Program-made: the position numbers and the translations under genes
The notes under the pieces: generated by a model
The model's input: the letters and a program-made list of their open reading frames with translations, nothing else
What the model was told of the DNA's origin: nothing
Database searches by the model: none
Source: an uncultured Candidatus Saccharibacteria bacterium
GTDB lineage: Bacteria; Patescibacteriota; Minisyncoccia; Phycocordibacterales; CAIZLB01
Direction of reading: 5' to 3'
DNA length: 64,000 nucleotides
Assembly: GCA_964450605.1 (NCBI GenBank)
Contig: CAYVEK010000002.1
Coordinates: 87,681-151,680 of the forward strand
Shown: positions 7,534 to 51,663 of the stretch, in pieces
Layout of the letters: the number at the start of each line of letters is the position of its first letter
How positions within the stretch are numbered: the stretch's first letter is position 1

Positions 7534-8004
7534 TTATTTATCTATTTTATTAATACGTCGAAGATGTCGCTCATCTTGAGAAAAAGATGTACTGAGCCAT
7601 ATATCAACAAGAGTTGTAAGCTCATCTTCATCTACAAAGCGTGCCCCTATAGATAACACATTTGCATCATTATGCTCTCGACTAAGTACGACTATCTCTT
7701 GAGCCTTTTCACCACCATAGCACACTACCGCTCGAACGTGAGGAAATCGATTTGCAACCATGGCTTCACCTTGACCTGATCCACCAAATATAACCGCCTT
7801 TTCTTCTCCTTTTGAATCAGAAACTGCACGAGCAGCTTTTGCTATATACTCAGGATAATCATCTCCTTCTGTATACACTTCCGCTCCGTGATCTATAACA
7901 AGACAACCTTTTTCAAGTAAAAAAGCTTTAACTTTTTCTTTATATTCAAATCCTGCATGATCTGTAGCGAGATGTATGGTTTTCATATCTTGGTTATAGC
8001 ACAT
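7534..8004 (-). CDS. rpiB: Ribose-5-phosphate isomerase B
   Basis: 156 aa. MKTIHLATDHAGFEYKEKV...CYGGEKA is typical of the RpiB/LacAB family. Confidence 0.85.
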   Translation of the reverse strand: MCYNQDMKTIHLATDHAGFEYKEKVKAFLLEKGCLVIDHGAEVYTEGDDYPEYIAKAARAVSDSKGEEKAVIFGGSGQGEAMVANRFPHVRAVVCYGGEKAQEIVVLSREHNDANVLSIGARFVDEDELTTLVDIWLSTSFSQDERHLRRINKIDK

Positions 8005-8007
8005 TTT

Positions 8008-9060
8008 TTACAAATCTTGCCCACCTGTAACTTTTTCAACTTTTGCTGACAAACCTGTCTCTTTATCAAAACTGTACTCACCTTTAAGTGCAAGAGTTAG
8101 CATATCAAGTCTGTCTTTTAATATCGCCTGACCTTCCGCTTCGTTTTCCGCATCTTTGGCAAAATGCGCAAGCACAGGATCTTGTATAGCTCGAGAATAT
8201 GAATATGTCATAGCAAATGGAAATGGACCAAGCTTCATAAGCTCTGATAGATTCATTGCTGCCTGAGTTGGAGTTTGTCCACCTGATAGAAATACTATAC
8301 CGCCGATATTTTTAGGAACAGTTGAAAGAAGGACATCTGCTGTGTGTTTTGCAACTTCTTCATGTGTAGCTGTTTCAACAGCACTTTTTCCAGAAAGCAC
8401 AAAAGATGTTTTGAGTATAACTCCTGTAATATCAACTTTATATAAAGCTAGTTCACCAAATAGATGCGTGAGTGTATTTTGTAATCGCTCGGCGCATTCA
8501 TATATAGAATGTGTTCCATCATATAACACTTCTGGTTCGATGATAGGTACCAAACCTGCTTGCTGTGCAAGTGATGCATAGAGCGCAAGGTTTCGCATAT
8601 TTGCCTCAACTCCACTGTCAGTAGAAGTCGTTACATCAACAACCGCTCGCCATTTTGTAAATCGTGCACCGAGTTTATAATATTCTTCAAGTCTTTCTTT
8701 TAGACCATCTAATCCTAGGGTTAGTTTTTCTCCTGTAAAGTTTGGCAAATCAACAAGACCTTTATCGACTTTGATACCTGGGACAATACCATGTTCAGTA
8801 CAATACTGTGCAAATGTTTTCCCCTTCTCTATCTCTTGTCTTAGAGTCTCATCATAAAATATAACTCCGCTTATATACTTCGATACATCTGGAGTTCCAA
8901 TAAGGAGTTTTCGGTACGCAAGACGATTCTCCTCTGTCTGTGCTATGCCAAGCGCTTCAAAACGCTTATGAATAGAGTTTGTGCTCTCATCAGCGGCCAA
9001 TAATCCTTTTCCTTCTGCAAATATCTGTTTGATTGTTTCGTGTAGTTTTTCTGTAGTCAT
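8008..9060 (-). CDS. fba: Fructose-bisphosphate aldolase, class I (eukaryote-type)
   Basis: GLLAADESTNSIHKRFEALGIAQTEENRLAYRKLL matches the class I FBA N-terminal signature. The protein is 350 aa. Confidence 0.85.
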   Translation of the reverse strand: MTTEKLHETIKQIFAEGKGLLAADESTNSIHKRFEALGIAQTEENRLAYRKLLIGTPDVSKYISGVIFYDETLRQEIEKGKTFAQYCTEHGIVPGIKVDKGLVDLPNFTGEKLTLGLDGLKERLEEYYKLGARFTKWRAVVDVTTSTDSGVEANMRNLALYASLAQQAGLVPIIEPEVLYDGTHSIYECAERLQNTLTHLFGELALYKVDITGVILKTSFVLSGKSAVETATHEEVAKHTADVLLSTVPKNIGGIVFLSGGQTPTQAAMNLSELMKLGPFPFAMTYSYSRAIQDPVLAHFAKDAENEAEGQAILKDRLDMLTLALKGEYSFDKETGLSAKVEKVTGGQDL

Positions 9061-17258: not shown

Positions 17259-20252
17259 TTATTGATTTATCAGCTTTCTGGTCTTTGGACCAAAATACCC
17301 TGAAGCAGGTTTTATGCTATGTGCTTTTTGATACTCAATCAAGGCATCTTTTGTTAGCTTTCCAAAATAATTAGTACTTTTATCTTGGCCCAATATTTTT
17401 GCTTTAGGTCCACTATTTTCCTTAATTAAAAATTGTTGAAGATCCTTAACGTCTGATCCGACAGAGCCAACCTTTAAATCTCGAACAAAAACTTTTGTAT
17501 TTATTTTTTTAAAAGGTGCACCGTTATTATTTGTTTTTTCTTCGGCAAATAATTGAGGCCATTTTTTCTTCAACTGCTCTGCTTCTGTTTTTTTGCCCAT
17601 TTTATACAGATATTCAACTTGTTGAGCTATACTACTTCCACCCGCACCAGGTCCCACCTGAGCACTCGCGCCAGCAGACAAAGTCTGACCAAAAAGAGAG
17701 AATATAGAGAAGTGTGGAGCGGTACACGTTATAGTATTTGTACTAGTATTTACAGAACAATCGTTGAGTGCTGACCATTCACCATTTGCATAGTGATACA
17801 AACGAAGAGTCGCCTCATCCAAACCTGCAATATCTGCATCTGAATATGTATACGTTATAGTAACAGGCAAAGCAAAAGAATCGAGAATAACATTTGAATT
17901 TATAATAGCCTTAACGTCAAAAACTATATCTCCAACTTTCACGGTTGTACTTGTAGGTTTACCAATAAGTCCAATAACAGGATTTCCAGGTAAAGATTGG
18001 ATCTGTATAATCACATTTGATGATGTCGAGGTGAAGTTTGCCGGAGTAGTAATCATAAACGTTGCTCCACCCTCTGTAAGTTGTGTTGTTGTTGTAGCAC
18101 TTACAGTTACATCTGTTGAAGTTGCTGATGTTTGAACAACTGATGCTTCACAACCTATTGTTTTAAATGTATCGTCAGATGACGTTGCTGTATTTGTATA
18201 CCCATCACGAGATACAATTTTATAGTAATACGTTGAGCAAGGAACTAGATTTGTTAGAGCTATAGAATGAGAAGTAACTCTGGGTGAGGTGTCTGTTTCC
18301 GCTGTACTGCTACTAAATTTAACTACTCCATAGTATACACGACTTGAAGCATTTTCATTCGTACTCCAAGTTATAGACGCTGATGTTGAGGAAGTACTTG
18401 TTGCAGAAACAGATGTTATGACAGGTGCTGTAGTGTCACCCATGGTAAAGTTCCAAGAAGTACTCGCATTTACACCTGCAAAGTACGCATGTGACCCATC
18501 TCTAAAAGCTGTACTTGGAATCATTACATAGTAGCCAACTCCTTCTTGAAAATCATTTACAGGATTAACAACTATAGTGTTTGTACCACTTCCCGTTACC
18601 GTTGAGCTTGCAACATTTATTGTCTCAAACACCGTATTGTCAGCTGTTTTGTAAATCGTAATATCACTTGTACTTGCATATACAGTCGTACTAAACAACA
18701 TCGTTAGATTTGTTGATGTTGCAACGCCGGTCGAGTTGTCTGCTGGAGTTAGAGACGAGATACTTGGTGCATTTGTTGTGCTAATTGATACATTTTTAGC
18801 TATAACAGTTGGCAAGGCTCCAAGAGCACCGTACTCAACAACATATCCAGGCAGTGTTGTTCCTGTACAAGGAAGATCGTTCCATTTTCCAGATCCACCT
18901 GATAAGAATTGACCACAATCTTCATTTGAACCCGCATCATTTGGTTCACCAGTTCCCCAGTTTGCGTAATTACCACCAAAAGTAGATCCTCCACTTGCAC
19001 CACTCCAAAACTGTGTACCTGTCTCAGGCCCTGTCGCCCACTTCCAAGCACCTTCGACAGCAGAATCAGAAGCGCCCATCCAACCGGCATTCGATAAACG
19101 AGCTGCGACGAAATCATTTTCTTGTTGTGAAGTAATGGTTGTTAGGTACCCAGTAGCACCATATTTTGTAAGTGAAGCTGCTGCGGCTTGTGCCCCTTGC
19201 CATGTAAGTGTACTTGATATGTATTCATATAGATGGCCGTTATCTGCAAAAAATACTTCACCTGAAGGTACAAGAGAAACTTCAAGAGTGTCTGACCCTG
19301 TACTTGCTCGAGTATATGTAAGTGTTGAAAGAGCGTTATTAATATCCGTAACCGTTCCGCTAAAATACAATGTTGAACCAGTTGTTCCGCCTGTAAACGT
19401 AAGACCTGTTGTATTTGACATTGCCAATGTTCCACTTGTAACTCGCAACTTCACAGGTGTTGTTGATGCTCCATTTCCGCTTATTTGTACATCAGTTATA
19501 GGCATTGCCACATTTGCAGTACCTGTGACTGTATCTGCACCTACAATAGAAAAGTTTGCAGGAGGTGTGGCAGAATATGTTTGTACTCGAGTAGAGTGTA
19601 CAAAATGAACACCACTGTTATACCACGTTGATAAACCAGAAGATCCACTTCCTTGCAAGGTTGCAGAACTATCCGTTGTATTAAAAGTACCAACAAGACT
19701 ATTGTCAGCAAGATTTCTCACAATGACAGATATAACTGTTGCATTTGTACTTGTTGCAGAAAACTCAATACTATACCCAATAGAATTGTTAAGAGAAAGT
19801 GCCGTTGTTCCAAGTGAGGTTGTAACTCCTCCAACTATTTTATATACAAATATTCCACCACTTCCGATATGTGCAAGATAATGATCATTTGTCCCTGATT
19901 GATATCGCAAAACAAGTCCTAAAAACTGACCAAAGTTTTCTCCCGCAGGAAGAGTTGCTATGATACGCTGGTCCTGTTTATTTTCTGAACTTGGTCGTAA
20001 CAAAAACTTTGTCAAATAATCTGAACTTGCATACGACGATCCTTGCAGTTGATTGTTCGATATATTCCACATACCTCCTGCCGTATCTATCCACCCATTA
20101 CCGGCGCCCGATGTTGAGCCTGGAGTAGAAGACGTTGCAGTATCTGCTCGAGTAAATGAATCATCGACAACTGGATACCATGTCGTTGCGCTAACTGATA
20201 CCGACAATAATGATACTGAAAAAATAAATAAAAATTTTGAAACTTGTTTCAT
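17259..20252 (-). CDS. Large secreted multidomain surface protein: C-type lectin-like domain, Ig-like (Big) and FN3-like domains, C-terminal peptidoglycan-binding domain
   Basis: 997 aa with a signal peptide. The lectin-like region is WQGAQAAAASL...QQENDFVA...EGAWKWATG...ANWGTGEPNDAGSNEDCGQF...GKWNDLPCT. The FN3-like region is SITWSTNENASSRVYYG...CSTYYYKIVSRDGYTN. The C-terminal PG_binding_1-like region is LKVGSVGSDVKDLQQFL...LIEYQKAH. Confidence 0.75.
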   Translation of the reverse strand: MKQVSKFLFIFSVSLLSVSVSATTWYPVVDDSFTRADTATSSTPGSTSGAGNGWIDTAGGMWNISNNQLQGSSYASSDYLTKFLLRPSSENKQDQRIIATLPAGENFGQFLGLVLRYQSGTNDHYLAHIGSGGIFVYKIVGGVTTSLGTTALSLNNSIGYSIEFSATSTNATVISVIVRNLADNSLVGTFNTTDSSATLQGSGSSGLSTWYNSGVHFVHSTRVQTYSATPPANFSIVGADTVTGTANVAMPITDVQISGNGASTTPVKLRVTSGTLAMSNTTGLTFTGGTTGSTLYFSGTVTDINNALSTLTYTRASTGSDTLEVSLVPSGEVFFADNGHLYEYISSTLTWQGAQAAAASLTKYGATGYLTTITSQQENDFVAARLSNAGWMGASDSAVEGAWKWATGPETGTQFWSGASGGSTFGGNYANWGTGEPNDAGSNEDCGQFLSGGSGKWNDLPCTGTTLPGYVVEYGALGALPTVIAKNVSISTTNAPSISSLTPADNSTGVATSTNLTMLFSTTVYASTSDITIYKTADNTVFETINVASSTVTGSGTNTIVVNPVNDFQEGVGYYVMIPSTAFRDGSHAYFAGVNASTSWNFTMGDTTAPVITSVSATSTSSTSASITWSTNENASSRVYYGVVKFSSSTAETDTSPRVTSHSIALTNLVPCSTYYYKIVSRDGYTNTATSSDDTFKTIGCEASVVQTSATSTDVTVSATTTTQLTEGGATFMITTPANFTSTSSNVIIQIQSLPGNPVIGLIGKPTSTTVKVGDIVFDVKAIINSNVILDSFALPVTITYTYSDADIAGLDEATLRLYHYANGEWSALNDCSVNTSTNTITCTAPHFSIFSLFGQTLSAGASAQVGPGAGGSSIAQQVEYLYKMGKKTEAEQLKKKWPQLFAEEKTNNNGAPFKKINTKVFVRDLKVGSVGSDVKDLQQFLIKENSGPKAKILGQDKSTNYFGKLTKDALIEYQKAHSIKPASGYFGPKTRKLINQ

Positions 20253-20281
20253 TATAGAATCAAGTATATCAAAGTATTATT

Positions 20282-20761
20282 TTAAATACACACCTCAACT
20301 GTTTCAATCACAACTGAAACTCTCGGTCTGTCTGCCATATCTACTGCAACCTGTTCGATTTCAGCAACTATATCCATACCTCCTATAACTTTTCCGAAAA
20401 CAGTATGTTTGGTATCTAAAAATAGATTATCTTTTACGTTTATGAAGAACTGGCTACCGTTTGTGTTTGGACCAGAATTTGCCATAGAGATAGTTCCTGC
20501 CAAGTTATGATTCTCTGCATGTATTTCATCTGCAAACTTGTACCCTGGGCCGCCTGTTCCCCAAAAATCAATCTTTTCGTCATCTTTAGTTAACGGATCA
20601 CCACTTTGAATCATAAAACCAGCAATCACTCGATGAAATTTTACACCGTTGTAAAATCCATCTTTTGAAAGTTTGATGAAGTTCGCAACCGTATTTGGTG
20701 CTAGTTTTTGAAATAATTCGAGAGTAATATCGCCACGATTTGTATGTAGAATTGTTTTCAT
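20282..20761 (-). CDS. ppiB: Peptidyl-prolyl cis-trans isomerase, cyclophilin type
   Basis: FHRVIAGFMIQSGDP...NGSQFFI matches cyclophilin. Confidence 0.9.
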   Translation of the reverse strand: MKTILHTNRGDITLELFQKLAPNTVANFIKLSKDGFYNGVKFHRVIAGFMIQSGDPLTKDDEKIDFWGTGGPGYKFADEIHAENHNLAGTISMANSGPNTNGSQFFINVKDNLFLDTKHTVFGKVIGGMDIVAEIEQVAVDMADRPRVSVVIETVEVCI

Positions 20762-20789
20762 GGGATGAGTGTAACATAAAACCTATGTA

Positions 20790-21467
20790 TCACGAATCCC
20801 CTTCTATATCCTCAGCCACGATCCAATCACAACCCTCCGGACCAACCACTGCAGTGTGTTTTACATGTGAAGGAACATCAAATCTCTCACCGGCCTTAAA
20901 GGTTTTATCAAAACCACTGGTAAAAGTAACTGAGCCTCTGAGTATATAAAAAGCTGTTCTTCCTTTATGTTCATGTTCTTCGTACACAGTGTTAGGTGCA
21001 TCTGTCCATTCGAAGATGTGGAGGTATCCGTCTTTTTTGAATTGACCTTTAAGGTAATCTTTTATTAATTCAATATCTCGCAAATCTTTTTCACGAGCAC
21101 TATCAGCTTTGCATACTAAAATATTCGGTAATGACTGAACAGGTATATCGTTGATTAAATCTGCCTCTGAAAGAACTTTTTGAACATCAAAGAAATAATT
21201 TTGTTTTTCCAAATACACATCTCCATATATTTCTATATCATCTTTTATTAGTCGTTTACGATTCCATTTTTGTTCGTACTCAGAATCTAGGATAAAACCC
21301 TCTGACATAAGGCGATTAAATAAATCTGGAGCAACTAAAATATCCAGGTCTCTAGTATCTCGAATTCCTCTTACTGCAAGGTTTGAACCTCCTATGAGCA
21401 TATATTGACCCGTTGGTAAGTTGAGGGATTTAACTTTATTTATTATGTCTGTGGGTGTATATGACAT
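20790..21467 (-). CDS. Fusion protein: N-terminal minimal nucleotidyltransferase-like domain plus C-terminal cupin domain
   Basis: N-terminal GGSNLAVRGIRDTRDLDILV is MNT-like; C-terminal HEHKGRTAFYILRGSVTF...H is a cupin motif. Confidence 0.45.
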   Translation of the reverse strand: MSYTPTDIINKVKSLNLPTGQYMLIGGSNLAVRGIRDTRDLDILVAPDLFNRLMSEGFILDSEYEQKWNRKRLIKDDIEIYGDVYLEKQNYFFDVQKVLSEADLINDIPVQSLPNILVCKADSAREKDLRDIELIKDYLKGQFKKDGYLHIFEWTDAPNTVYEEHEHKGRTAFYILRGSVTFTSGFDKTFKAGERFDVPSHVKHTAVVGPEGCDWIVAEDIEGDS

Positions 21468-21469
21468 GT

Positions 21470-21793
21470 TTATATATTCTCTAACGGATACACATCCATT
21501 GCAATCTCATCATATGGGTGCACTTCTTTAATAGCCCTGATAACCTCTTGCAGTTTTTCCCTCGAACAGATTGTTTCTATTCTTTCTTCTATCACCTCTT
21601 CAAACTTTCCAACTTCACCGATATGAGGGTTTGCACCAACTTCAGGTTTAAATCTCCCTATACCTTTTGAAGAAAAAGTACAGTACGTGTAGTTACCTAT
21701 TTTTCCTGCTCCTGCTTTTCCCATAGCTTCTCGAACAATATCAGTGTGAGTTTCTGGGACGAATATGACGATTTTGACGTTAAGTGAGTTCAT
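21470..21793 (-). CDS. Stand-alone YqfO/Nif3-insert-type PII-like domain protein
   Basis: IFVPETHTDIVREAMGKAGAGKIGNYTYCTF...RFKP...HPYDEIAMDVYPLENI closely parallels the PII-like insert of Bacillus YqfO (AYVPEHYADEVKEALFSAGAGHIGQY...AHPYEEVAYDVYPLEN), as I recall that sequence. Confidence 0.6.
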   Translation of the reverse strand: MNSLNVKIVIFVPETHTDIVREAMGKAGAGKIGNYTYCTFSSKGIGRFKPEVGANPHIGEVGKFEEVIEERIETICSREKLQEVIRAIKEVHPYDEIAMDVYPLENI

Positions 21794-21797
21794 ATTA

Positions 21798-22616
21798 TTA
21801 TTTTAATTTCTTAATTGTATTATTAGACTGCAGTGATTTCATTTGAGATATTGCAATTTCATTTAATTTTAATATTCTATCAGATTGAGTCATTCCCATT
21901 TTTATAAACTCAGCATTCAATGTTTCTAGATTTGCAAGACATACAAGCTCATACACATCAGCATAATCACGCATATTTCCTTCTTTATTTTTATTCTTAC
22001 TCTTCCACTCCTGAGCAGTCATTCCGAAAAGTGCCTTATTTAAAATATCAGCCTCGTTTGCATAGATTCCTACCGCATCCTGTTTTGATAATTTATTTGG
22101 TAAAACAATATTTTCTTTAATTGAATCTGTGTGAATTTTATAATTTATTTTTGTCAAAACTCTTTTTGCATCCCATCCAATCGTTAGACGTTCGGCTTCA
22201 TCTATTTTCAACCTTTGAAACTCTTTGATCAGATACAGTTTAAACTCAGCAGAAATCCAAGTGGCAAATTCAAATGCAATGTCTTTATGGGCAAATGTAC
22301 CTCCGCCATTTCCAGACTTAGAGATAATTCCAACGGCACCTGTAGTCTCTATCCACTTCTGAGGTGATAAAGTAAAACTATTGGAACCAGCCTCTTTTTT
22401 AAAGGCGTCGAATTCGACCCCTTTGAAATTTAAATTATTAACCCTTTCCCAAACACCCAAAAACTCTATAGTAGAATAATTTCTCATCCAATTTTTAACA
22501 ACATCTTTTGGCTCATTTGGATTCTTATATCGAGCAATATCAGTAAGGGAAATATAATCATCCTGACCCTGTCTAAATGTGTATATTTGAATACCTTGAG
22601 TGTTTATCTTCTTCAT
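21798..22616 (-). CDS. KilA-N domain protein (phage-derived DNA-binding module) with an antirepressor-like C-terminal region
   Basis: N-terminal ISLTDIARYKNPNEPKDVVKNWMRNYSTIEFLGVWE fits the KilA-N pattern. Confidence 0.65.
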   Translation of the reverse strand: MKKINTQGIQIYTFRQGQDDYISLTDIARYKNPNEPKDVVKNWMRNYSTIEFLGVWERVNNLNFKGVEFDAFKKEAGSNSFTLSPQKWIETTGAVGIISKSGNGGGTFAHKDIAFEFATWISAEFKLYLIKEFQRLKIDEAERLTIGWDAKRVLTKINYKIHTDSIKENIVLPNKLSKQDAVGIYANEADILNKALFGMTAQEWKSKNKNKEGNMRDYADVYELVCLANLETLNAEFIKMGMTQSDRILKLNEIAISQMKSLQSNNTIKKLK

Positions 22617-22648
22617 ATTTGCTCAAAGTGTATCATACTAAAAATCTT

Positions 22649-23122
22649 TTATTTATGTTGTAATGTTTGAACAACAATACGATGTCTATATTTGGCATGT
22701 CTAACAGACTCATCTAAAAATCTAGTGATTCGAACATCACGATTGCCGTCAGAGATAATACGAACATCTGCCACAAAAAATTCATTATTTGCTTTAAAAA
22801 GAAATCTAAAACATGTCCACTCTTCCATGCTTAAGATATAGTCTTTCGCATTATGTATGATAAAACTTTTTATCTGCGGAGTTGTGAGAACTAAATGGTC
22901 TATGTTTTGATCAATACTTTCAAAAATATTTTTATACTCCGCATCCTCTGTTTGTTCATACACATCTACCGTAATATCAGGAGTTGGAGACTCAGGTTTA
23001 TCGCACCCCCAATTTTTAAAATCAGGACTAATATAGTTAAAAATATCTTGGGCAGAAGCGAGGATTTCTGTACCGTCAGTAGAGCCAATCGTTACAGATG
23101 TGTCTAGCTTATTACAAATCAT
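22649..23122 (-). CDS. Orphan hypothetical protein (157 aa); first of three small genes each preceded by the conserved GTTGGAC...GTTAGAAC element
   Basis: ATG lies directly adjacent to repeat copy A. No known domain. Confidence 0.3.
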   Translation of the reverse strand: MICNKLDTSVTIGSTDGTEILASAQDIFNYISPDFKNWGCDKPESPTPDITVDVYEQTEDAEYKNIFESIDQNIDHLVLTTPQIKSFIIHNAKDYILSMEEWTCFRFLFKANNEFFVADVRIISDGNRDVRITRFLDESVRHAKYRHRIVVQTLQHK

Positions 23123-23123
23123 T

Positions 23124-23150
23124 GTTGGACGGATTGATACAAGTTAGAAC
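23124..23150. repeat. att-like conserved element, copy A (GTTGGACGGATTGATACAAGTTAGAAC)
   Basis: Three copies occur at 23124, 23514 and 23901, spaced 390 and 387 bp apart. Each sits just upstream of a minus-strand small gene. Confidence 0.8.
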
Positions 23151-23154
23151 CGTT

Positions 23155-23505
23155 TTAATTAAAATACAAGAACATTCCCATCACCAAAATCAGCTGAATT
23201 CCCACAGTAAACAGTAATCTTTTAAATCCTGTAGACTGAACCAATGAAGCGTGTTGCAAAACACTCACACCGATAGGATCAATCTGGTTTCCTAAATCAG
23301 TAGGCTTTGTTGATGGATCATAAAGATATACTGCCAGCGACAATGTGTACACAAGAATTGCCTGAAGTAATCCGCTAATAATGGTTTGATTTTCCTGATA
23401 TTTGAAAAATACTGTTGATATTAGTGAAAACACTATAGCAGTAATGAATAAAATTGTGAGCGAAACTTTTTTGGATCTATAATACATACATAAATAATAC
23501 CACAA
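23155..23505 (-). CDS. Orphan small membrane protein (3-4 TM helices); annotated start is TTG, and an internal ATG at 23487 is more likely the true start
   Basis: Hydrophobic helices; no known domain. Confidence 0.3.
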   Translation of the reverse strand: MWYYLCMYYRSKKVSLTILFITAIVFSLISTVFFKYQENQTIISGLLQAILVYTLSLAVYLYDPSTKPTDLGNQIDPIGVSVLQHASLVQSTGFKRLLFTVGIQLILVMGMFLYFN

Positions 23506-23513
23506 AACCTCTC

Positions 23514-23540
23514 GTTGGACCGATTACGTGAAGTTAGAAC
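23514..23540. repeat. att-like conserved element, copy B (GTTGGACCGATTACGTGAAGTTAGAAC)
   Basis: Direct repeat of copy A/C. Confidence 0.8.
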
Positions 23541-23561
23541 TGCTTTGATAAAATCAAGCCT

Positions 23562-23861
23562 TTAATTGCCTGAAAAACAGATATACTCATGAGTATTAAT
23601 TGTTAATATAAAATCTTGTATTTGAGAAGAAACACTTGCTAATTCTTCAGAGAACTTGAACGTCTTCAACTCGGATATCAATTGAGGAACTTGTAGTGTA
23701 TTGAAAATTGTATCTCCATAAGGATCAATTCCCCAGAGAGTTTTGAAAGTTTTTTCCTGATCCCTGTCATGTATTTCAGCAAGAAGACGACCGAAATCTA
23801 GGTTTGAATCGGTTATTATTTTCCCATGTTCGTCTTGTAAGAATATTCCTATTGGTTGCAT
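23562..23861 (-). CDS. Orphan small cytosolic protein (99 aa)
   Basis: No known domain. A TGTGAT-N3-ATCACA palindrome lies between repeat C and its ATG. Confidence 0.3.
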   Translation of the reverse strand: MQPIGIFLQDEHGKIITDSNLDFGRLLAEIHDRDQEKTFKTLWGIDPYGDTIFNTLQVPQLISELKTFKFSEELASVSSQIQDFILTINTHEYICFSGN

Positions 23862-23882
23862 ATTGTGATCATATCACACAAT

Positions 23883-23927
23883 TTGTTAACAAAATCACTT
23901 GTTGGACGGATTACGTGAAGTTAGAAC
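23883..23927. repeat. att-like conserved element, copy C, fused to a 22-mer (TTGTTAACAAAATCACTTGTTG) that is identical to the sequence abutting the tRNA-Gln 3' end at 28004-28025
   Basis: Exact 22-nt identity seen in the sequence. Confidence 0.85.
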
Positions 23928-23993
23928 CTCTTTATATCATACTTTGGTGGGTAAATATGCAGTGATGAGGACATGTGAAAAAGTCTAATACCA

Positions 23994-24022
23994 TTGACAT
24001 TTGTATCTATGGATTGTATTAT
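23994..24022 (+). promoter_or_regulatory. Sigma-70-like promoter TTGACA-17-TATTAT upstream of the radical SAM gene
   Basis: Consensus hexamers with 17-bp spacing. An AT-rich promoter abuts a GC-rich ORF. Confidence 0.5.
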
Positions 24023-24058
24023 TGCAGGCAGAAACCAAACCCTCAAACTCCCGCACAA

Positions 24059-25917
24059 TGAACAAAATAATCGCTCCCCTTCTCGTCATCTGTATGATGG
24101 CCTTGAACCTCACCACCAACACATCTTGGGAGGTTAATCTCTCACCAGACTCCGTCTGCAAAATGATCTACAACCACACGGACGTAGACAAACCAATCAC
24201 CCTCAAAGCTCGTTCTGTTGAAGTCGAGATGTACGTAGAGTACGGATGGGGTTGGAGGACAGTTAACGTGCTTGGTGAACCCAAGACCGAAATATCCTTC
24301 AAACCGGGCCCTGCATACATCGTTCCGATCTGTGATATCAGAGTGCTTTCCAATAAGAAACGTCATACCGACTTCGCCTTGCGAGTCTGCGCCGTGGCCG
24401 CTCCGTACTGGATATGCAATAAGAATCCAAATCGTCGCCTCAGCCTCAACAGTCGAACGCCATTCTCGTTGCAGAACGCTCTCCGATGTGTCGCTGAAGC
24501 AGCTCAAAACGAAGAAGGTCCACTCAATGCAAATTGGACTGATCCCGAACTCGTTCACGAATCAATGATGCTCTTCGATGATTACGAAGAGAACGCTGCC
24601 AGCTTTGCAGACCGCCTCCGGCTCATTCAGCCAAACGTCCTGTACATCGGATCAATGACCCTGTCTTTCCCCGGGGCTGTCGAACTTGCCCGCACAGCAA
24701 AGCAAATGTTTGGAGACGGGATTCTCGTAGTGCTTGGCGGCCGACATGTGAACGAAACGTTTTACACGGAGGCAAATCAAATCAAGCATCACAAAGGATC
24801 ACCGCTCCTACTTATGCAGCAAGGAAAGATCGACCAGGTCTTCGACTTGGTCGTCTCAGGCGATGGAGAGCATATATCATTAAAGATCGCCGAGATTGTC
24901 CAACGCGTCGCGACGGACAATCTAATGGTGCGAAACTTTTTTGATCACTCGCTCGAACTTTCCGAGGCTCCAGGAATCTGGCAAGCCGGATGGATCACCG
25001 CTCGGAACGAGATCGAAACGGTGCGTAGTTTAAAACCGCAAGACCGCAGCAGTTTACCAATCCCGGCAGAGGTCTTTGGTATCACCTCGCGCTTCCCTAT
25101 CTTTGGCACGGATTACACCGCGCACGTCTACAGCGATTCAAGTCGAGGCTGCGTGCGAGACTGCAGCTTCTGCAGCGAACGTCGATCAGTGGCCGGAGGT
25201 ATGCAAAACCCTGCGGCCAGTGCTGATCGATTGTTTAGACAGCTTCTTACAGTTCAAGAAATCGGCAGGATCAACGAGTGCTCGGTCAGTGCCTTCGTGG
25301 AGGATTCAATTCTCCTCGCCGGCAGTCCGCAGTACTTATCACGTCTTGCCGATCTTATGGAGAAATCCAAGTTCAACATGAGGTTCGGCGGTCAGTTCAC
25401 CGTAGCTGACCTAACAAACCCCCTCGTGCAACAACAGATTCAAAGACTACAGCAATATGGGTTGTACTATATCTACACAGGTATGGAAACAATCAACCCT
25501 GAAGCTGCGGCAGCCATGAGCAAAAACCGTAAGAAGAATACCCCGTGGTTAACACAAAACACCGAGGCTATAGACTTCGTGAGCAGGATCGGGCTAAAGT
25601 TCGGAGTGTCGGTTCTCTTCGGTATCGGCGAAAGCCAACTCGAGAGACTCCTACACCTGGACACACTCGCAGAGTGGCAGAGAGAATATCAAAACCCCTG
25701 CGTAGTCAGCCTGAATTGGGCGACCGAACACCCACTACTCAACCAGTCGTCACACGACTTTGTTGAGTGGGGCACCAACAGAGACGATCCTCGTCTTAGT
25801 TTGATGCAAGAGGTGTTCGGGGAATCATCCGCAAGGTATTGTTTCCACCCCCTACCCAACACAGAAGAACTCAGTATAATCGCGGAAAAGTTCAGAAACC
25901 TCAACAACCGTACGTAA
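24059..25917 (+). CDS. B12-binding-domain radical SAM enzyme (class B-like); GC-rich gene. The ORF-track start at 24001 is a TTG inside the promoter, so the likely start is ATG 24059 (MNKIIAPLLV...)
   Basis: CxxxCxxC motif in GCVRDCSFCSE. An upstream Rossmann-like B12-binding-type segment (ILVVLGGRHV) is present. About 50% GC by eye versus roughly 36% background. The N-terminal ~150 aa are unassigned and include a hydrophobic leader. Confidence 0.65.
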
Positions 25918-25978
25918 AGTAAGCAACCCTGACTACGTACAAATCCTCGTACCGGAGCAATCTGGTGCGAGGCATTTT

Positions 25979-27043
25979 TTATAATAATTCTTTGCAGGCA
26001 ATTACCAATGTATCAATATCTTTCTTACTATTTGATATTGATAGAGATATTCTAATAAGTGGAATACCGGGTTCTACAATACTATATCCCATATTATCAG
26101 ATACACTGATTTTATATTGATCTAATAATTTTTTAACTACATCTGCAGTTAGATCTCTATCCCCTACTGACAATGTAATAATATGATTTACTTGGTGTGG
26201 CACCTCATAAATATATTTCTCTAGACCATTTAATTTAAATTGCTCTACTAGATACAATCTAAGATCATGTATATGTTTTTCAAAATCAACTTCGTTAAAT
26301 TGCTTTAACATCTCAACCGTTGAAAATAACTCCTTGGTATAACCACCGAGATCAATCTGAGGATACTCACAATCCTCAGATATATATTTATATTTAAATC
26401 CTTTTTCCAAAACACAGAGACCGAGATGTAGTTCAGCACCGATGAACTTCGATGATGTAGCAATGTATGCATCCGTATAATGCAATGGATAGATTTTTGA
26501 TCCACCAATCATCTGCGCTCCATCTGCAATACATACAGCATCTGGATATTTTTCTTTTACATGTTTAAAAATAGACTCAACTGGATATTCTTGTCCGGTT
26601 AATCTCGATACATGTGAATGAATGACAACGACAACAATTCCTTCATCTTCCAGAATCATAGGTCCCTCATCTGGATCGAATACTGTAACTGGATGTGACT
26701 GAAATGTGAATTGATGCTTTGTTGCATAGTTTGGATATGACATATCTTCCAATGACAGCTCTCCTCGTTGCAATATATCTTTAATCCAAAAAACCTCATG
26801 GGCATCTAAGAATATGGATATAGGTTTTCCGTTCTTACTCACCATATCAACAATATATGCAATATGGGTTGAAACATTCTGATCAATATAGACATGTTGG
26901 TCAACGTCAGTCCATAGAACTGACATATCCTGACGCAACCGCGAAACCAACTCACCCGAGTCTTGTTTGATCTCTGTATTAGATAGGAGTTTTGGCTTTC
27001 TACCATCACAGCTGTTCAAATAAATTATCGGCATTAGATTCAT
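25979..27043 (-). CDS. PLP-dependent aminotransferase class V-like (cysteine desulfurase / epimerase fold)
   Basis: VCIADGAQMIGGSKIY...ATSSKFIGAELHLG resembles the class V Lys region. Confidence 0.55.
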   Translation of the reverse strand: MNLMPIIYLNSCDGRKPKLLSNTEIKQDSGELVSRLRQDMSVLWTDVDQHVYIDQNVSTHIAYIVDMVSKNGKPISIFLDAHEVFWIKDILQRGELSLEDMSYPNYATKHQFTFQSHPVTVFDPDEGPMILEDEGIVVVVIHSHVSRLTGQEYPVESIFKHVKEKYPDAVCIADGAQMIGGSKIYPLHYTDAYIATSSKFIGAELHLGLCVLEKGFKYKYISEDCEYPQIDLGGYTKELFSTVEMLKQFNEVDFEKHIHDLRLYLVEQFKLNGLEKYIYEVPHQVNHIITLSVGDRDLTADVVKKLLDQYKISVSDNMGYSIVEPGIPLIRISLSISNSKKDIDTLVIACKELL

Positions 27044-27061
27044 AGTAGCATATCGATATCT

Positions 27062-27982
27062 CTATACCATATATGTCAGAGAATCCTCATAGGCAAGGTC
27101 TTCCCCTTTTAAGATCTTTTGGTATATGTCTTTCACCTTTGAAGTCAGCGGCCCTATCTTACCCTCACCTATCTTCCGCGCATCCACTTCAATAACAGGC
27201 GCTACAAAAGAAGACGTCCCGCAAGCAAAGACCTCATCTGCCACATACAATTCTGTTAAATCAATATTTCGTTCCATCACAGGAATATTCAAACTCTCCG
27301 CAATTTTAAAAATTATTTTTCTATTAATTCCCTCAAGAATATCATTAGATGAGTTTGGAGTAATCAAAGCTCTATTTCGCACAATGAAAATATTTGCCGC
27401 ACTCAACTCGCACACATGTCCGTCATTGTCTAAAAATATACAGTCATCATACCTACTGTCGAGTGCATCTTGTTTACCTAATACTGAGTTCACATACGCT
27501 CCATTAACTTTGGCTCTAGATGGTATTGAATAATCAGGAATACGTCGCCATACACTTGTTTTCAGCCGCACACCATTTTGAGGAATGATCGGATTGGCTT
27601 CATATATGAATATACTTAGCATCGTCTTAAGCCCTCTTGATCGAGTACCTGGAACCAAATCGACCACGTGTACTGTAGCTCTGACAAATGATAACGCAGT
27701 TATATTATTTGCTTTTATAACTTCTGATACAGCTTTTTCAAATCGCGCATAAGCCCACTCTGATTCAAAAGTATCAATGCCAATTATTTTTGATGAGTTG
27801 ATGAGTCGAGTGTAGTGATCTTTGAGATAGAGTGAAGCTATTCCTTTTTTAGTAGAAATAACTGGAAATACAGTGTATACACTGAGGCCATATAGTACAG
27901 CAGAACTCGCCACACTTAGATGAGCGTCTTCGATTGGGATGATTTTGTTTCCAAAATAGGCTTGAGGATGTATGTTGGACAT
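27062..27982 (-). CDS. Class IV aminotransferase (branched-chain amino acid / D-amino acid aminotransferase family)
   Basis: EVFACGTSSFVAPVIEVD and overall length fit fold type IV. Confidence 0.7.
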   Translation of the reverse strand: MSNIHPQAYFGNKIIPIEDAHLSVASSAVLYGLSVYTVFPVISTKKGIASLYLKDHYTRLINSSKIIGIDTFESEWAYARFEKAVSEVIKANNITALSFVRATVHVVDLVPGTRSRGLKTMLSIFIYEANPIIPQNGVRLKTSVWRRIPDYSIPSRAKVNGAYVNSVLGKQDALDSRYDDCIFLDNDGHVCELSAANIFIVRNRALITPNSSNDILEGINRKIIFKIAESLNIPVMERNIDLTELYVADEVFACGTSSFVAPVIEVDARKIGEGKIGPLTSKVKDIYQKILKGEDLAYEDSLTYMV

Positions 27983-28022
27983 TACGATAAATTATAAAGT
28001 TTTTTGTTAACAAAATCACTTG

Positions 28023-28094
28023 TTGCCAGACTTGGAATCGAACCAAGATTAACGGGATCAGAATCCGTTGTCCTACCTTTAGACGATCTGGCAA
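28023..28094 (-). tRNA. tRNA-Gln (anticodon CTG)
   Basis: Hand-folded cloverleaf: acceptor TGCCAGA/TCTGGCA (U1-A72); D arm GTCT-AAAGGTA-GGAC; anticodon loop TTCTGAT with one stem mismatch; T arm CTTGG-TTCGATT-CCAAG. No CCA is encoded. Confidence 0.7.
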
Positions 28095-28133
28095 TAGCCC
28101 CATTATACATATTTATAAAGTTTTTTCCACCAA

Positions 28134-28450
28134 CTCTTGACACCACAAAAAACCAGCGCTAGACTAAATTACGGCACCTTCAAAGGAATCTCTCTGATCT
28201 GTTTTCAGAAGAGCTCTTCCGGTCCTCAGGTGACCAACTTCCAACCAACCTGCCACCATCATGGCCCAACAAAAACCCAAACCACCTCGTCACGTATCTC
28301 ACCAGACCAGAAAAGGAGGGTCCTCCCCCCATTCAGGTCAAGCTCTCGCTGTCATCTGGGAAGGCCGAAAGCCTCCCAAGAAGCGGCACTGAGATCGTTA
28401 TCAACCCAAAACCCCGCCTCGGCATTACGCCGGGCGGGGTCCATTTTTTT
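28134..28450 (+). ncRNA. Candidate structured noncoding RNA or degraded GC-rich insert: TTGACA-17-TAGACT promoter, about 280 nt of ~55-60% GC sequence, then a strong intrinsic terminator (28411-28450)
   Basis: The only ORF (28137..28490) translates to a low-complexity peptide and reads through the terminator. An 11-bp GC-rich hairpin plus T7 closes the element. RNA family not identified. Confidence 0.25.
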
Positions 28451-28473
28451 ATATAACTCAACCAACCCTCCTT

Positions 28474-29724
28474 TTACTGAACACCATTAACTCCATCATA
28501 TTTAGCCTCACCAACTATAGTGTTATATGCAGGTCTATACAAAAACACTTTGTTGTTTTTCTCGTAGAGCAAGATAACATCTCCATCCTGTGCATACATA
28601 AACAAACTATTTTTTCCAACAGATGTCTTTCTTACCTCTTCTATACTTGTAATGGTATAGATAATGGGTGTCTCTTTAACCGAAAGAGTTGTCAATTTTT
28701 CAACTCGTTCAGCTATGATTTGGTCACCTGTTTTTCCAGCATCTTCTCGTGTAGTTTTTCCAAACATTTCTTCAAAAAACTTTTCAAAAGAAAAATCTTT
28801 CACATTTGCAGTTGGTACAACAACAGGCTCTGTTGCAATAACTGATCCTTGTAGGCCAAATTTGTCTGAATATTTTACAGTCTTTGTAATCTTTCTTCCT
28901 TTACTGTTGTATGCCTGACGAGTATCTGTTCCTGTAGATGTAAACTGTACAAGATAGCCGGCAAGTTTTCCGTCTTCTGCAGTGATCTCTATTTTTCCTT
29001 TTGCAAGGTTTTCTGCGAATTGTTTATTGTTCTTAATCTCTTTTGCTGTAAGTTTTCTATTTTTTGCTTTAGCAAGTTTATTTACGTTTGCGATTAAAAC
29101 TGCTGGTTTAACTTTTATAGAATACACAGTTTTTGTTCCAACTTTTTTTGTTGTAACAGAAAACCAGTTTGTATTTGTCCATATAGCATCAACAGCACTT
29201 AGTGTATCAACTGAATTACTTTGTTTTGTTTTCTTAAATTCTGAACCATCAACACGTAGCCATACTCCACTGTATTGATCAAGGGCTGTTGTGTACAGTT
29301 TCTGCTGTGCGATTTTTACATACTCTGGATACATGTATACATACATCGCTTTTAAACTCGTATCATCATTTGCAATGGCAACTATGATATCAAACGGAAT
29401 CGCATAGTCATACATCAACATATATTCCGATGTAATATACATAGTACCTTTTAGCTCCACCAGATTATTTATATTATCTGTAGAAATCTTTAAATCTGCT
29501 TTTACCTTAGAAGTATCTTTTTTTGTTTTTGCACCTGGCTCAGTTATAGTTTCAACTGAGTCAACTTTAAAACTGATCTGTTCAGTACCGTTTAAACTTT
29601 CAGAAAGGAGTGGTGATTGTTTAAACAACTCCATTACTTTATCTTCTAACATACCGGCTTTTGCAGACGTCGCCCATGATAACGTCAAAAGGAACACTGT
29701 TAGGCTAAATATTATTTTTTTCAT
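28474..29724 (-). CDS. Secreted hypothetical protein (416 aa) with signal peptide
   Basis: MKKIIFSLTVFLLTLSWATSAKA signal; no known domain. Confidence 0.4.
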   Translation of the reverse strand: MKKIIFSLTVFLLTLSWATSAKAGMLEDKVMELFKQSPLLSESLNGTEQISFKVDSVETITEPGAKTKKDTSKVKADLKISTDNINNLVELKGTMYITSEYMLMYDYAIPFDIIVAIANDDTSLKAMYVYMYPEYVKIAQQKLYTTALDQYSGVWLRVDGSEFKKTKQSNSVDTLSAVDAIWTNTNWFSVTTKKVGTKTVYSIKVKPAVLIANVNKLAKAKNRKLTAKEIKNNKQFAENLAKGKIEITAEDGKLAGYLVQFTSTGTDTRQAYNSKGRKITKTVKYSDKFGLQGSVIATEPVVVPTANVKDFSFEKFFEEMFGKTTREDAGKTGDQIIAERVEKLTTLSVKETPIIYTITSIEEVRKTSVGKNSLFMYAQDGDVILLYEKNNKVFLYRPAYNTIVGEAKYDGVNGVQ

Positions 29725-29880: not shown

Positions 29881-30189
29881 ATGAAACTTGTTAAAATTCT
29901 CTTCGCCGTCCTGACCGCCGCCACCTTCAGCTCCTGCACCATCGAGGTGCAGAGCCGGGGAGGTTACAGCGGTGGCGGACCCGTGGTCCGCCCGCTGACC
30001 GGAAACCCCTACACCTATCAAGGCGGAGGGTACTACGGCCGGCCGGCCCCGACGGTCCGGCCCCAGACCCCCTACCGGCCCAATGGCCGGGCCTATCCGG
30101 AGGAAACCTCCGGATTTGTAGGGGTCCCGTGGACCCAGGCAGAAAAGAACGAAATGAGGTTCTCGACCTCAAAATGGGGTGGGTTGTAA
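29881..30189 (+). CDS. Small GC-rich (~65%) Gly/Pro/Tyr-rich putative lipoprotein
   Basis: Signal peptide with ...TFSSC lipobox-like site. A compound hairpin terminator lies at 30214-30258. Composition is strikingly different from its neighbours. Confidence 0.4.
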   Translation: MKLVKILFAVLTAATFSSCTIEVQSRGGYSGGGPVVRPLTGNPYTYQGGGYYGRPAPTVRPQTPYRPNGRAYPEETSGFVGVPWTQAEKNEMRFSTSKWGGL

Positions 30190-45469: not shown

Positions 45470-46237
45470 ATGAAAATCCGCATTCTACTGGTCCTCGTGA
45501 CCATCCTCATCACCCTGCTCTTCAACAGCACCGCCTCAGCAACCGCTGAGAAGGATGGAGGGTTTGGCAAACCCTCCATCACTACCCACGTCGAGTGGGC
45601 TCAACAATACCTCGCCTTCGGGGCGGGGATAAACCTCACAGACGACCCTGTTCTGCAAGGCTCCATTACCCTTAACTGGGATAATGGCACCTACCTGTTT
45701 TTATGGGGTTCCACTGATATGTCTGGTCGGCCCGGAAGCTCACTCGGGGACGAGTATGATCTCGGGCTAGGTTGGGCCGGCAACCTCAAAGGCTGGAGCA
45801 TCGACATCGGTGTCACCTACTTCGACGAACCCCACATGGGGAAAGTCGGACATCTCGGCGAAGAAGACATCCTGTATGTGCACCTGAAGGCTGGTCGCGA
45901 TATCGGCCGTGGATGGACCGCATCAGCAGCATTTGAAAGCTATATCACCATGCCGAACACTGAGTACAACGGTGGAAACCTGTACTCAGTCGAGTTGGCA
46001 AAAACTTTCAAAGCATCAGAACGGCTGTCCTTCCCCTTCTCGATCTCTGCCGTCTACGATGATGGTGGGTTCGGATTTGATTCCGGCTGGTTCCTTCGTG
46101 GGAACCTGGGCGCAGACATCACCCTGTCGAAAACACTCACCGCCAATATCGGCGGACGGTACTATGTGCCGTTTGATGTTGACGACGGAAGAGAAACCGA
46201 TGCAATGCTCTACCTCGGCTTCACGTGGAAGCCGTAA
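45470..46237 (+). CDS. GC-rich (~55%) secreted beta-rich protein with outer-membrane beta-barrel-like character (MipA/OmpV/OmpW-like alternating strands)
   Basis: Signal peptide; repeated alternating hydrophobic/polar beta-strand segments; aromatic-rich C-terminus (YLGFTWKP); composition is atypical for this genome. Confidence 0.35.
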   Translation: MKIRILLVLVTILITLLFNSTASATAEKDGGFGKPSITTHVEWAQQYLAFGAGINLTDDPVLQGSITLNWDNGTYLFLWGSTDMSGRPGSSLGDEYDLGLGWAGNLKGWSIDIGVTYFDEPHMGKVGHLGEEDILYVHLKAGRDIGRGWTASAAFESYITMPNTEYNGGNLYSVELAKTFKASERLSFPFSISAVYDDGGFGFDSGWFLRGNLGADITLSKTLTANIGGRYYVPFDVDDGRETDAMLYLGFTWKP

Positions 46238-49662: not shown

Positions 49663-50064
49663 ATGAAACTGCTACATCCAGCTGACCCCGCTCTGATAAC
49701 AGCCCTTCAAAGGGTAATCCGATCTGCACAAGATCAACAATGCTCCATACCTGAGGACCCTGAAGAAACCCCTATCGCCGAACTTTTCGAGTCTTCCGCA
49801 AGAAGCGAGAACTCACAAGCGTTTCGAAAGATGATGTTCGACCGTTTCTCTCGCGGGATCGTACTTTGCGAACTTATCCCCACTGTCGAAGGAAGGAAAG
49901 TTTGCCTTGAGGTCTGTCCTGCTGCCAACTTCAGGGTCGTTATCCCTGGCCAGTGCAACATCGGAGTCGATCTCCGGACGACCGTAAAGATATGTGCACT
50001 GGTTCACCCAAGCACTCCTTTTTCACAGATTCTGCACAGTGCAATCGAAAAGGCGATGCAATAG
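49663..50064 (+). CDS. GC-rich (~52%) hypothetical protein, Cys-containing
   Basis: No known domain. A hairpin (ccccgagggtttttcgggg) plus T-run terminator follows. Confidence 0.3.
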   Translation: MKLLHPADPALITALQRVIRSAQDQQCSIPEDPEETPIAELFESSARSENSQAFRKMMFDRFSRGIVLCELIPTVEGRKVCLEVCPAANFRVVIPGQCNIGVDLRTTVKICALVHPSTPFSQILHSAIEKAMQ

Positions 50065-51472: not shown

Positions 51473-51534
51473 ACCTACGAAAAACCTATAAAGTTCAACT
51501 ATAGCCCAGTATATCCCAGACTCCCTGAAAACAC

Positions 51535-51566
51535 AAAACCCCGTCTTGCGACAGGGTTTTATGACA
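51535..51566. terminator. Bidirectional intrinsic terminator (ccccgtc-ttgc-gacaggg with a one-nucleotide bulge, flanked by A and T runs)
   Basis: Hairpin plus flanking runs. Confidence 0.5.
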
Positions 51567-51663
51567 TTTCGTTTTAGGAGCCTGCCATGAATTGCTTCTG
51601 GCGCTCACATACAGCCATACTAGCATATTTGATCTTAAAAGTCAAATATTAGGCCAGTTTTTG

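Follow-up and report, generated by a model that had tools for sequence, protein, structure and literature searches.

The gap between the gene for tRNA-Gln(CTG) and the stop codon of a convergent gene for a 416-aa protein (positions 28094-28473 of the window, that is, of the whole 64,000-nucleotide stretch of DNA that was analysed) raises the question of what is encoded by a promoter-driven, terminator-capped, GC-rich segment in a genome of ~37% GC. A reading made from the sequence only proposed the segment as a candidate stable structured RNA devoid of any credible ORF, possibly SRP RNA, tmRNA or RNase P RNA, and otherwise an unclassified RNA or a decayed acquired gene. The anatomy from which that proposal started is largely correct (Table 1): the block is GC-rich (0.51-0.56 over 28175-28474 versus 0.33-0.41 in the flanks), it lies next to tRNA-Gln, and it possesses its own promoter, the -35 hexamer of which had been placed one base too low, and a strong terminator hairpin followed by T7. 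The promoter is close to consensus, with a start predicted by promoter scan at ~28171-28172 and a predicted transcript of ~280 nt, and TTGACA-17-TAGACT is the sole site of its kind on the plus strand in those gaps of the window that exceed 200 nt, counting ORFs of 90 aa or more as their borders. The terminator hairpin is preceded by an A-tract on its 5' side; a layout of A-tract, hairpin and U-tract would stop transcription both of the unit and of the convergent 416-aa gene (28474-29724, minus strand), and the terminator is probably bidirectional.

Table 1. Features of the unit and of its divergent neighbour, in window coordinates
Feature	Position	Strand	Remarks
tRNA-Gln(CTG)	28022-28093	-	Divergent neighbour, outside the unit; own promoter TGGAAA-16-TATAAT
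Sigma-70-type promoter	28137-28165	+	-35 TTGACA 28137-28142, 17-nt spacer, -10 TAGACT 28160-28165
Conserved block ATTACGGCACC	28168-28178	+	Where the transcript is predicted to begin; occurs once in the window
5'-proximal stem-loop domain	28173-28235	+	Outer helix GGCACCU/AGGUG(A)CC around an inner hairpin; from per-sequence folds
G-poor, CA-rich leader	28236-28260	+	Little predicted pairing; directly 5' of the AUG; no Shine-Dalgarno motif
43-codon ORF plus stop, MAQQKPKPPRHVSHQTRKGGSSPHSGQALAVIWEGRKPPKKRH	28261-28392	+	Candidate polycationic microprotein; sole ATG of the transcript
C-rich motif CCTCCCCCCATTC	28322-28334	+	Within the ORF in the window; in the 3' UTR in L005, L089, L006 and L007
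Internal hairpin GGGAAGGCCGAAAGCCTCCC	28358-28377	+	Aligns locally with GGGGAGGCCGAAACGCCTCCC of L007, where CGGTTTTT follows
Intrinsic terminator	28411-28450	+	12-bp GC stem with one bulged U (28411-28440), CCA, T7 (28444-28450); from the fold

Related contigs were fetched using the flanking 416-aa protein and ftsX, and an ftsX-based scan of GTDB species genomes grouped the window with the Patescibacteria/Parcubacteria (Paceibacterota). Homologous units are present in six lineages (L004, L005/L087, L089, L006, L007 and L091/L092) at the equivalent place, downstream of ftsX, a lipoprotein gene and, where present, the 416-aa gene, and they retain both promoter and terminator, in agreement with the discrete unit that had been proposed. 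The neighbour on the promoter side is tRNA-Gln in L004 (ftsX 93% identical to that of the window), L005 (the same as L087/L088; 94%) and L089 (93%), and pyrG in L006 (88%) and L007 (84%), so that the link to the tRNA is incidental; the contig of L091/L092 (83%) carries no tRNA-Gln. The body of the unit is absent between the same flanks in L008/L090 (ftsX 84% identical to that of the window), which are closely similar to L007 in this region, and the unit is likewise absent in the relatives examined with ftsX identity of ~82% or below, where other genes adjoin tRNA-Gln or follow ftsX. A scan for the architecture across 95 loci and the window yielded no further copy. Given its absence from L008/L090 and from the more distant relatives examined, the unit is accessory and of narrow distribution: it is a real, conserved promoter-to-terminator unit confined to a small clade of uncultured Parcubacteria.

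The surroundings of the unit have peculiarities of their own. A 102-aa lipoprotein-like ORF (signal peptide plus Cys; 29881-30189, plus strand) forms an island of 65-70% GC, with a GC3 of 0.75 compared to 0.26 in typical genes, and has no Pfam match. Lipoprotein-like ORFs are convergent to ftsX in L003-L008, L010 and L012, and similarly placed ORFs occur in L009, L085 and L095; since the position recurs in most of the related loci examined, this is a real gene of aberrant composition. Further GC-rich genes of the window are those at 24058-25917, 45470-46237 and 49663-50064, all on the plus strand: a radical-SAM gene (GC3 0.58) and two genes without a Pfam match (0.64 and 0.50); the GC-rich genes, the lipoprotein-like one included, thus span GC3 values of 0.50-0.75. 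On the minus strand at ~51525-51645, upstream of the own promoter of a trmD-like gene, a TTGACT-17-TAGTAT promoter is followed by ~60 nt and the terminator AAAACCCUGUCGCAAGACGGGGUUUUGUGUUUU; comparison with Rfam gave no family (best E=0.14, terminator only), and this segment is a candidate sRNA of ~85 nt. A second unit, hereafter unit B, was observed on the reverse strand of three related loci (L007 ~7740-8105; L008 and L090 ~7610-7975), where it occupies the place of the window's 416-aa gene. It consists of a TTGACA promoter, a 5' hairpin, a CA-rich leader, CAACCUGCC, that abuts the AUG as in the window, an ORF of 36-42 codons, a long 3' UTR and a terminator, and it contains a 14-nt block, CGGAAGGGGGTGGT, the frame of which in L007 differs from that in L008/L090.

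The 3' flank of tRNA-Gln varies among close relatives (window 20000-28022, L004 4679-7768, L005 3464-8496). In the window it carries a class-IV aminotransferase gene, a class-V-like aminotransferase gene and a radical-SAM gene, which are absent in L004, and in L005/L087 a serine recombinase gene and a ParB-methyltransferase gene; KilA-N genes lie near this flank, and Logan contigs break inside tRNA-Gln. The flank looks like a hotspot of integration or rearrangement. Integration at tRNA-Gln was considered as the origin of the unit and rejected: the element lies 5' of the tRNA, and the copies in L006 and L007 adjoin pyrG, with no tRNA-Gln beside them. Other short GC-rich, hairpin-rich segments (e.g. 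62-72% GC over 50-100 nt), unrelated in sequence to the window element, are found within ~200 nt upstream of tRNA-Gln in the more remotely related L048, L051, L079 and L042.

A -35/-10 pair and a hairpin with U-run are present in all seven sequences, with compensating changes in the stems. The -35 hexamer is identical in L004, L005, L089, L006, L007 and L091, and the -10 hexamer reads TAGACT, TAAAGT, TATACT or TAAGCT. The block ATTACGGCACC is invariant in five of the seven sequences (window, L004, L005/L087, L089 and L006) and, among the fetched loci, occurs in the elements only, apart from a chance match to a eukaryotic retroelement (L086), the one match obtained when JGI metagenomes were scanned with TTGACA-N16-19-TANNNTNN-ATTACGGCACC. 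The architecture of the 5' stem-loop was predicted independently in L004, L005, L089, L006 and L007, with inner hairpins of differing sequence. In the outer helix, GGCACC pairs with GGUGACC, GGUCGCC, GGAAGCC or AGGUGC, with a bulge that shifts between the first two of these, and in the inner stem a U-A to C-G double change distinguishes the window from L004. The shared architecture is that of separate per-sequence folds: since sequence alone does not allow the inner hairpins to be aligned, RNAalifold gave no consensus structure for the 5' UTRs as aligned by MAFFT. The terminator hairpin is kept, with differing stem sequences, in L004, L005, L089, L006, L007 and L091, and its long U-run is always on the strand of the element. 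Since pairing survives sequence change in both, the 5' stem-loop and the terminator behave as constrained RNA structure. In the terminator of L005 (3075-3100) the loop is inverted relative to that of L089 (~8755-8780; ACTC versus GAGT), whereas the two stems are the same, a difference that template switching inside a hairpin would be expected to produce.

The proposed stable structured RNA is nevertheless supported only weakly, and the middle of the unit is neither conserved nor strongly structured. The fold z-score of -4.7 with the terminator becomes -2.6 without it, and the region of ~28236-28290, comprising the leader and the early ORF, is predicted to be almost wholly unpaired. All homologues carry a CA-rich, G-poor stretch of 25-35 nt before the ATG, which the folds leave unpaired in six of the seven; the exception is the window, with a weak 4-bp stem around the AUG. 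A C-rich motif, CCCCCAUU(U/C)CA, is conserved in five of the seven sequences and in four of them (L005, L089, L006 and L007) precedes the terminator. The failure of the sequence-only reading to find the hallmarks of RNase P RNA, tmRNA or SRP RNA was confirmed by the searches. An Rfam 15 cmscan of the window at the gathering threshold returned four tRNAs and no family for the unit, a cmscan of 27950-28600 at E<=10 returned just weak matches to the terminator hairpin, and a scan of eight related loci returned tRNAs only. With ARAGORN the window yielded its four tRNAs, and neither it nor the related loci scanned gave a tmRNA; the minimum free energy and centroid folds consist of separate local hairpins with an unpaired centre and have no 6S-type closing stem joining both ends.

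The claim that the segment has no credible ORF did not hold. The ORF of the window has its stop 19 nt ahead of the terminator hairpin, and there is a counterpart in every homologous locus: in all seven sequences, with just 1-3 ATGs per transcript, an ORF of 31-72 codons begins at the first or near-first ATG, 56-90 nt past the predicted start, and stops short of the terminator (43 codons in the window, 41 in L004, 32 in L005, 31 in L089, 35 in L006, 66-72 in L007 and 42 in L091). Composition-matched shuffles reproduce such an ORF in 3-9% of trials per sequence; given ORF bodies whose divergence has reached saturation, chance is not a plausible reason for its retention in six lineages. The 117-codon frame previously described as the only one does exist and does pass the terminator, but it starts inside the -35 box, and the separate ORF had been overlooked. 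A GTG start within this frame was rejected, the frame having no stop before the terminator, as was leaderless expression of the 43-codon ORF, since none of the homologues has a -10-like box ahead of the ATG.

The encoded peptides are all strongly basic (25-41% K+R+H, 0-6% D+E), and AlphaFold2 predicted no secondary structure for that of the window (pTM 0.18). Gene callers left the ORF uncalled on all fetched contigs. Pfam gave no match for the element with either the 117-codon read-through frame or the 43-aa ORF, and Pfam together with NCBIfam assigned none of the seven peptides to a family at E<=10, the known small ribosomal proteins (bL34, bL36, bS21 and others) included; phmmer found no match to the 43-aa peptide among 1.84 billion representative proteins, and a word-indexed collection contained none to the 72-aa peptide of L007. 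By local alignment, the internal hairpin of the window ORF is a relic of the terminator that is in use in the L007 homologue, now deprived of its U-tract and read through. With this relic and the C-rich motif both inside the ORF, the C-terminal half looks like a recent read-through extension, and the element like a mosaic.

Taken together, the comparisons make it rather probable, in our judgement, that the unit is an mRNA, monocistronic and leadered, that encodes an orphan microprotein of polycationic and intrinsically disordered character. We regard as unlikely, albeit worth serious consideration, that it is instead a non-coding, trans-acting sRNA in which the 5' stem-loop, the terminator and the single-stranded CA-rich and C-rich tracts, serving as seeds, are functional and the ORF is a compositional by-product. 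The close pair L005/L089 bears on both possibilities. The UTRs of these two are ~95% identical and the ORFs ~82%, and the UTR-like parts therefore outdo the ORF in conservation, as an sRNA would have it; the substitutions in the ORF are patchy and all change an amino acid, none being purely synonymous, and the fourfold sites of ftsX are 73% identical (27% diverged) in this pair. Conversely, the three net indels in the ORF are of 3 nt each and the six in the UTRs of 1-2 nt, a distinction that is drawn from one informative pair and argues for coding, and the stop codons align (TGA/TAA).

A sign of selection on the peptide comes from L004 and L091, the peptides of which are significantly similar (TRR..KK..P.HML.A..Q; z=5, 0 of 500 shuffles) although the DNA no longer aligns; half of their 14 identical residues (7) are specified by different synonymous codons, as read by eye, which is the pattern expected under selection at the protein level. 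Amino-acid conservation with a synonymous excess is thus seen in L004/L091 and unseen in L005/L089, and it is insignificant in the other 19 of the 21 pairs, in which peptide similarity is no better than in shuffled controls. Further points against coding are the GC3 of the ORFs (0.38-0.69 compared to 0.26 in typical genes), the C-rich motif and relic terminator that the window ORF contains and homologues have in their 3' UTR, the empty database searches and gene calls, and open frames that are partly compositional, since stops are rare in T- and G-poor sequence. Also in line with an sRNA are the C-rich motif, which stands before the terminator in L005, L089, L006 and L007 whatever the reading frame, the conserved block of unit B that is read in different frames, and a leadered, strongly promoted layout that is unlike that of the surrounding leaderless genes. 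What weighs against it is that an ORF of 31-72 codons is opened by the first or near-first AUG in all six lineages despite a saturated body, and that homology between the window and L004, which runs from the promoter at ~85% identity and returns at the terminator, breaks exactly at the ATG. Moreover, sites complementary to the C-rich motif are not in excess in the 64-kb window (11 versus 6.7 +/- 2.5 expected).

The two functions could also be combined, in a regulatory sRNA with an ORF for a small peptide, as known from SgrS/SgrT, RNAIII/hld and SR1/SR1P. Such a dual-function RNA would accommodate the maintenance of the ORF together with a UTR constraint that exceeds that of the ORF, as well as the conserved single-stranded C-rich and CA-rich tracts, but no target was found in the window, and a second function is unneeded, as 5' stabilisers and terminators by themselves suffice to account for conserved UTRs. 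We consider it improbable, more so than an sRNA pure and simple, and both are retained as rivals because the RNA-level features are the best-conserved parts of the unit.

Neither of the origins suggested earlier fares as well. A decayed, horizontally acquired GC-rich gene, the promoter and terminator of which would be coincidental, is effectively excluded. It would suit a GC content far above the genome average and the rearrangement of the tRNA-Gln side among relatives, but no protein or DNA homology was detected in any frame or collection searched (blastn gave one 29-nt chance match to phages and nothing in plasmids); the element flanks the tRNA at its 5' end, the usual side of integration being the 3' side; promoter, 5' stem-loop and terminator exceed neutral sites in conservation across the lineages; and other genes of the window are GC-rich as well, the lipoprotein-like one keeping its place across the clade. 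A divergent housekeeping RNA (SRP RNA, tmRNA, RNase P RNA or 6S RNA) is effectively excluded too, and is the least probable of all, for while the promoter/terminator layout and GC enrichment resemble those of stable RNA genes, cmscan was empty at both thresholds for the window and the eight related loci, ARAGORN and the predicted folds gave neither a tmRNA nor a stem closing the two ends, and the unit is missing at the syntenic site in the sister lineage L008/L090 and in the relatives examined at or below ~82% ftsX identity, where a universal RNA would persist.

The mRNA interpretation has to be seen against the mode of translation in this lineage. Of the window's 52 ORFs with 150 aa or more, none is preceded by a Shine-Dalgarno motif, and in many a TAnAAT box stands 6-9 nt ahead of the ATG, implying mRNAs that are mostly leaderless. 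The missing motifs fit the loss of the anti-Shine-Dalgarno motif that has been reported for a subgroup of Parcubacteria (PMC9297842). Since the genome uses no Shine-Dalgarno motifs, the lack of one at the AUG of the unit need not speak against coding.

If the unit is indeed a leadered mRNA, the segment 28137-28450 would be transcribed from the near-consensus sigma-70 promoter, and transcription would end at the strong, probably bidirectional terminator. The stem-loop begins 2-5 nt from the predicted 5' end, a known stabiliser geometry, and it could accordingly serve as a stabiliser or as a regulatory operator. The leader of ~25 nt, poor in G and rich in CA, would permit initiation independent of a Shine-Dalgarno sequence at the single AUG, opening the 43-codon ORF for a lysine-, arginine- and proline-rich peptide predicted to lack a fixed structure, and the composition of this peptide suggests that it may bind a polyanion (RNA, the ribosome or DNA). 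The clade keeps the ORF, along with its position and basic character, under very fast sequence turnover, in part by mosaic replacement, and the high GC content stems from the C-rich leader, from Pro, Arg, Gly, His and Gln codons of unusually high GC3 and from three GC hairpins. Rapid turnover and absence in sister lineages make a core ribosomal role of the peptide unlikely.

Parallels exist for individual parts of this arrangement. The E. coli ompA 5' UTR and the B. subtilis aprE and ermC leaders are 5'-terminal stabilising stem-loops; as in these, the stem-loop of the unit lies close to the (predicted) 5' end, at a distance of 2-5 nt, with a mostly unpaired initiation region behind it, and, like small-protein mRNAs with 5' stabilisers, the unit has a single cistron and an intrinsic terminator at its end. 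Unlike them, it has no Shine-Dalgarno motif, its coding part of 31-72 codons is hypervariable, and its stem-loop is a stabiliser only by presumption. With SgrS/SgrT, S. aureus RNAIII/delta-haemolysin and B. subtilis SR1/SR1P it shares the format of an RNA of ~250-450 nt with its own promoter and terminator and a short ORF, and the RNA parts of the unit are conserved at least as well as the peptide; it differs from SgrS, RNAIII and SR1 in having no likeness to them in sequence or structure, no Rfam match, and a seed and target that are hypothetical. The ribosomal proteins bL34, bL36, bTHX and bS22 resemble the peptide in size (30-45 aa), extreme basic charge, lack of a predicted fold and strong promoter, whereas the peptide has no Pfam or NCBIfam match at E<=10 and, in contrast to the high conservation of ribosomal proteins, is hypervariable, absent in L008/L090 and accessory. 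Finally, conserved non-coding flanks around a fast-diversifying, cationic, Pro/Arg/Lys-rich peptide recall families of proline/arginine-rich antimicrobial peptides, and close-pair substitutions that all change an amino acid, as in L005/L089, recall families of hypervariable peptides; unlike antimicrobial peptides, however, the unit has no signal peptide or export partner, and the likeness is one of composition.

A broader and considerably more speculative proposal, which we hold to be doubtful, is that the unit and unit B represent a family of accessory micro-gene cassettes of Shine-Dalgarno-less Parcubacteria. In these, a conserved promoter, stem-loop, leader and terminator would surround a polycationic, hypervariable peptide whose diversification proceeds through patchy replacement and frameshift, as expected of a conflict or interaction factor, for example an episymbiont's effector or antimicrobial-like peptide, or a modulator that binds nucleic acids.

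As the unit is not a missing housekeeping RNA, it has no bearing on the core biology of the Candidate Phyla Radiation (CPR). To our knowledge, the small proteins and sRNAs of the CPR are almost unexplored, and gene callers miss them; if the unit is the mRNA that we favour, it would add an unannotated, strongly promoted micro-gene to the genomes of this group. It would also illustrate how translation of a leadered mRNA may proceed in an otherwise largely leaderless lineage that has abandoned Shine-Dalgarno pairing, and the contrast between its conserved flanks and its hypervariable ORF would offer a testable case of fast microprotein turnover.
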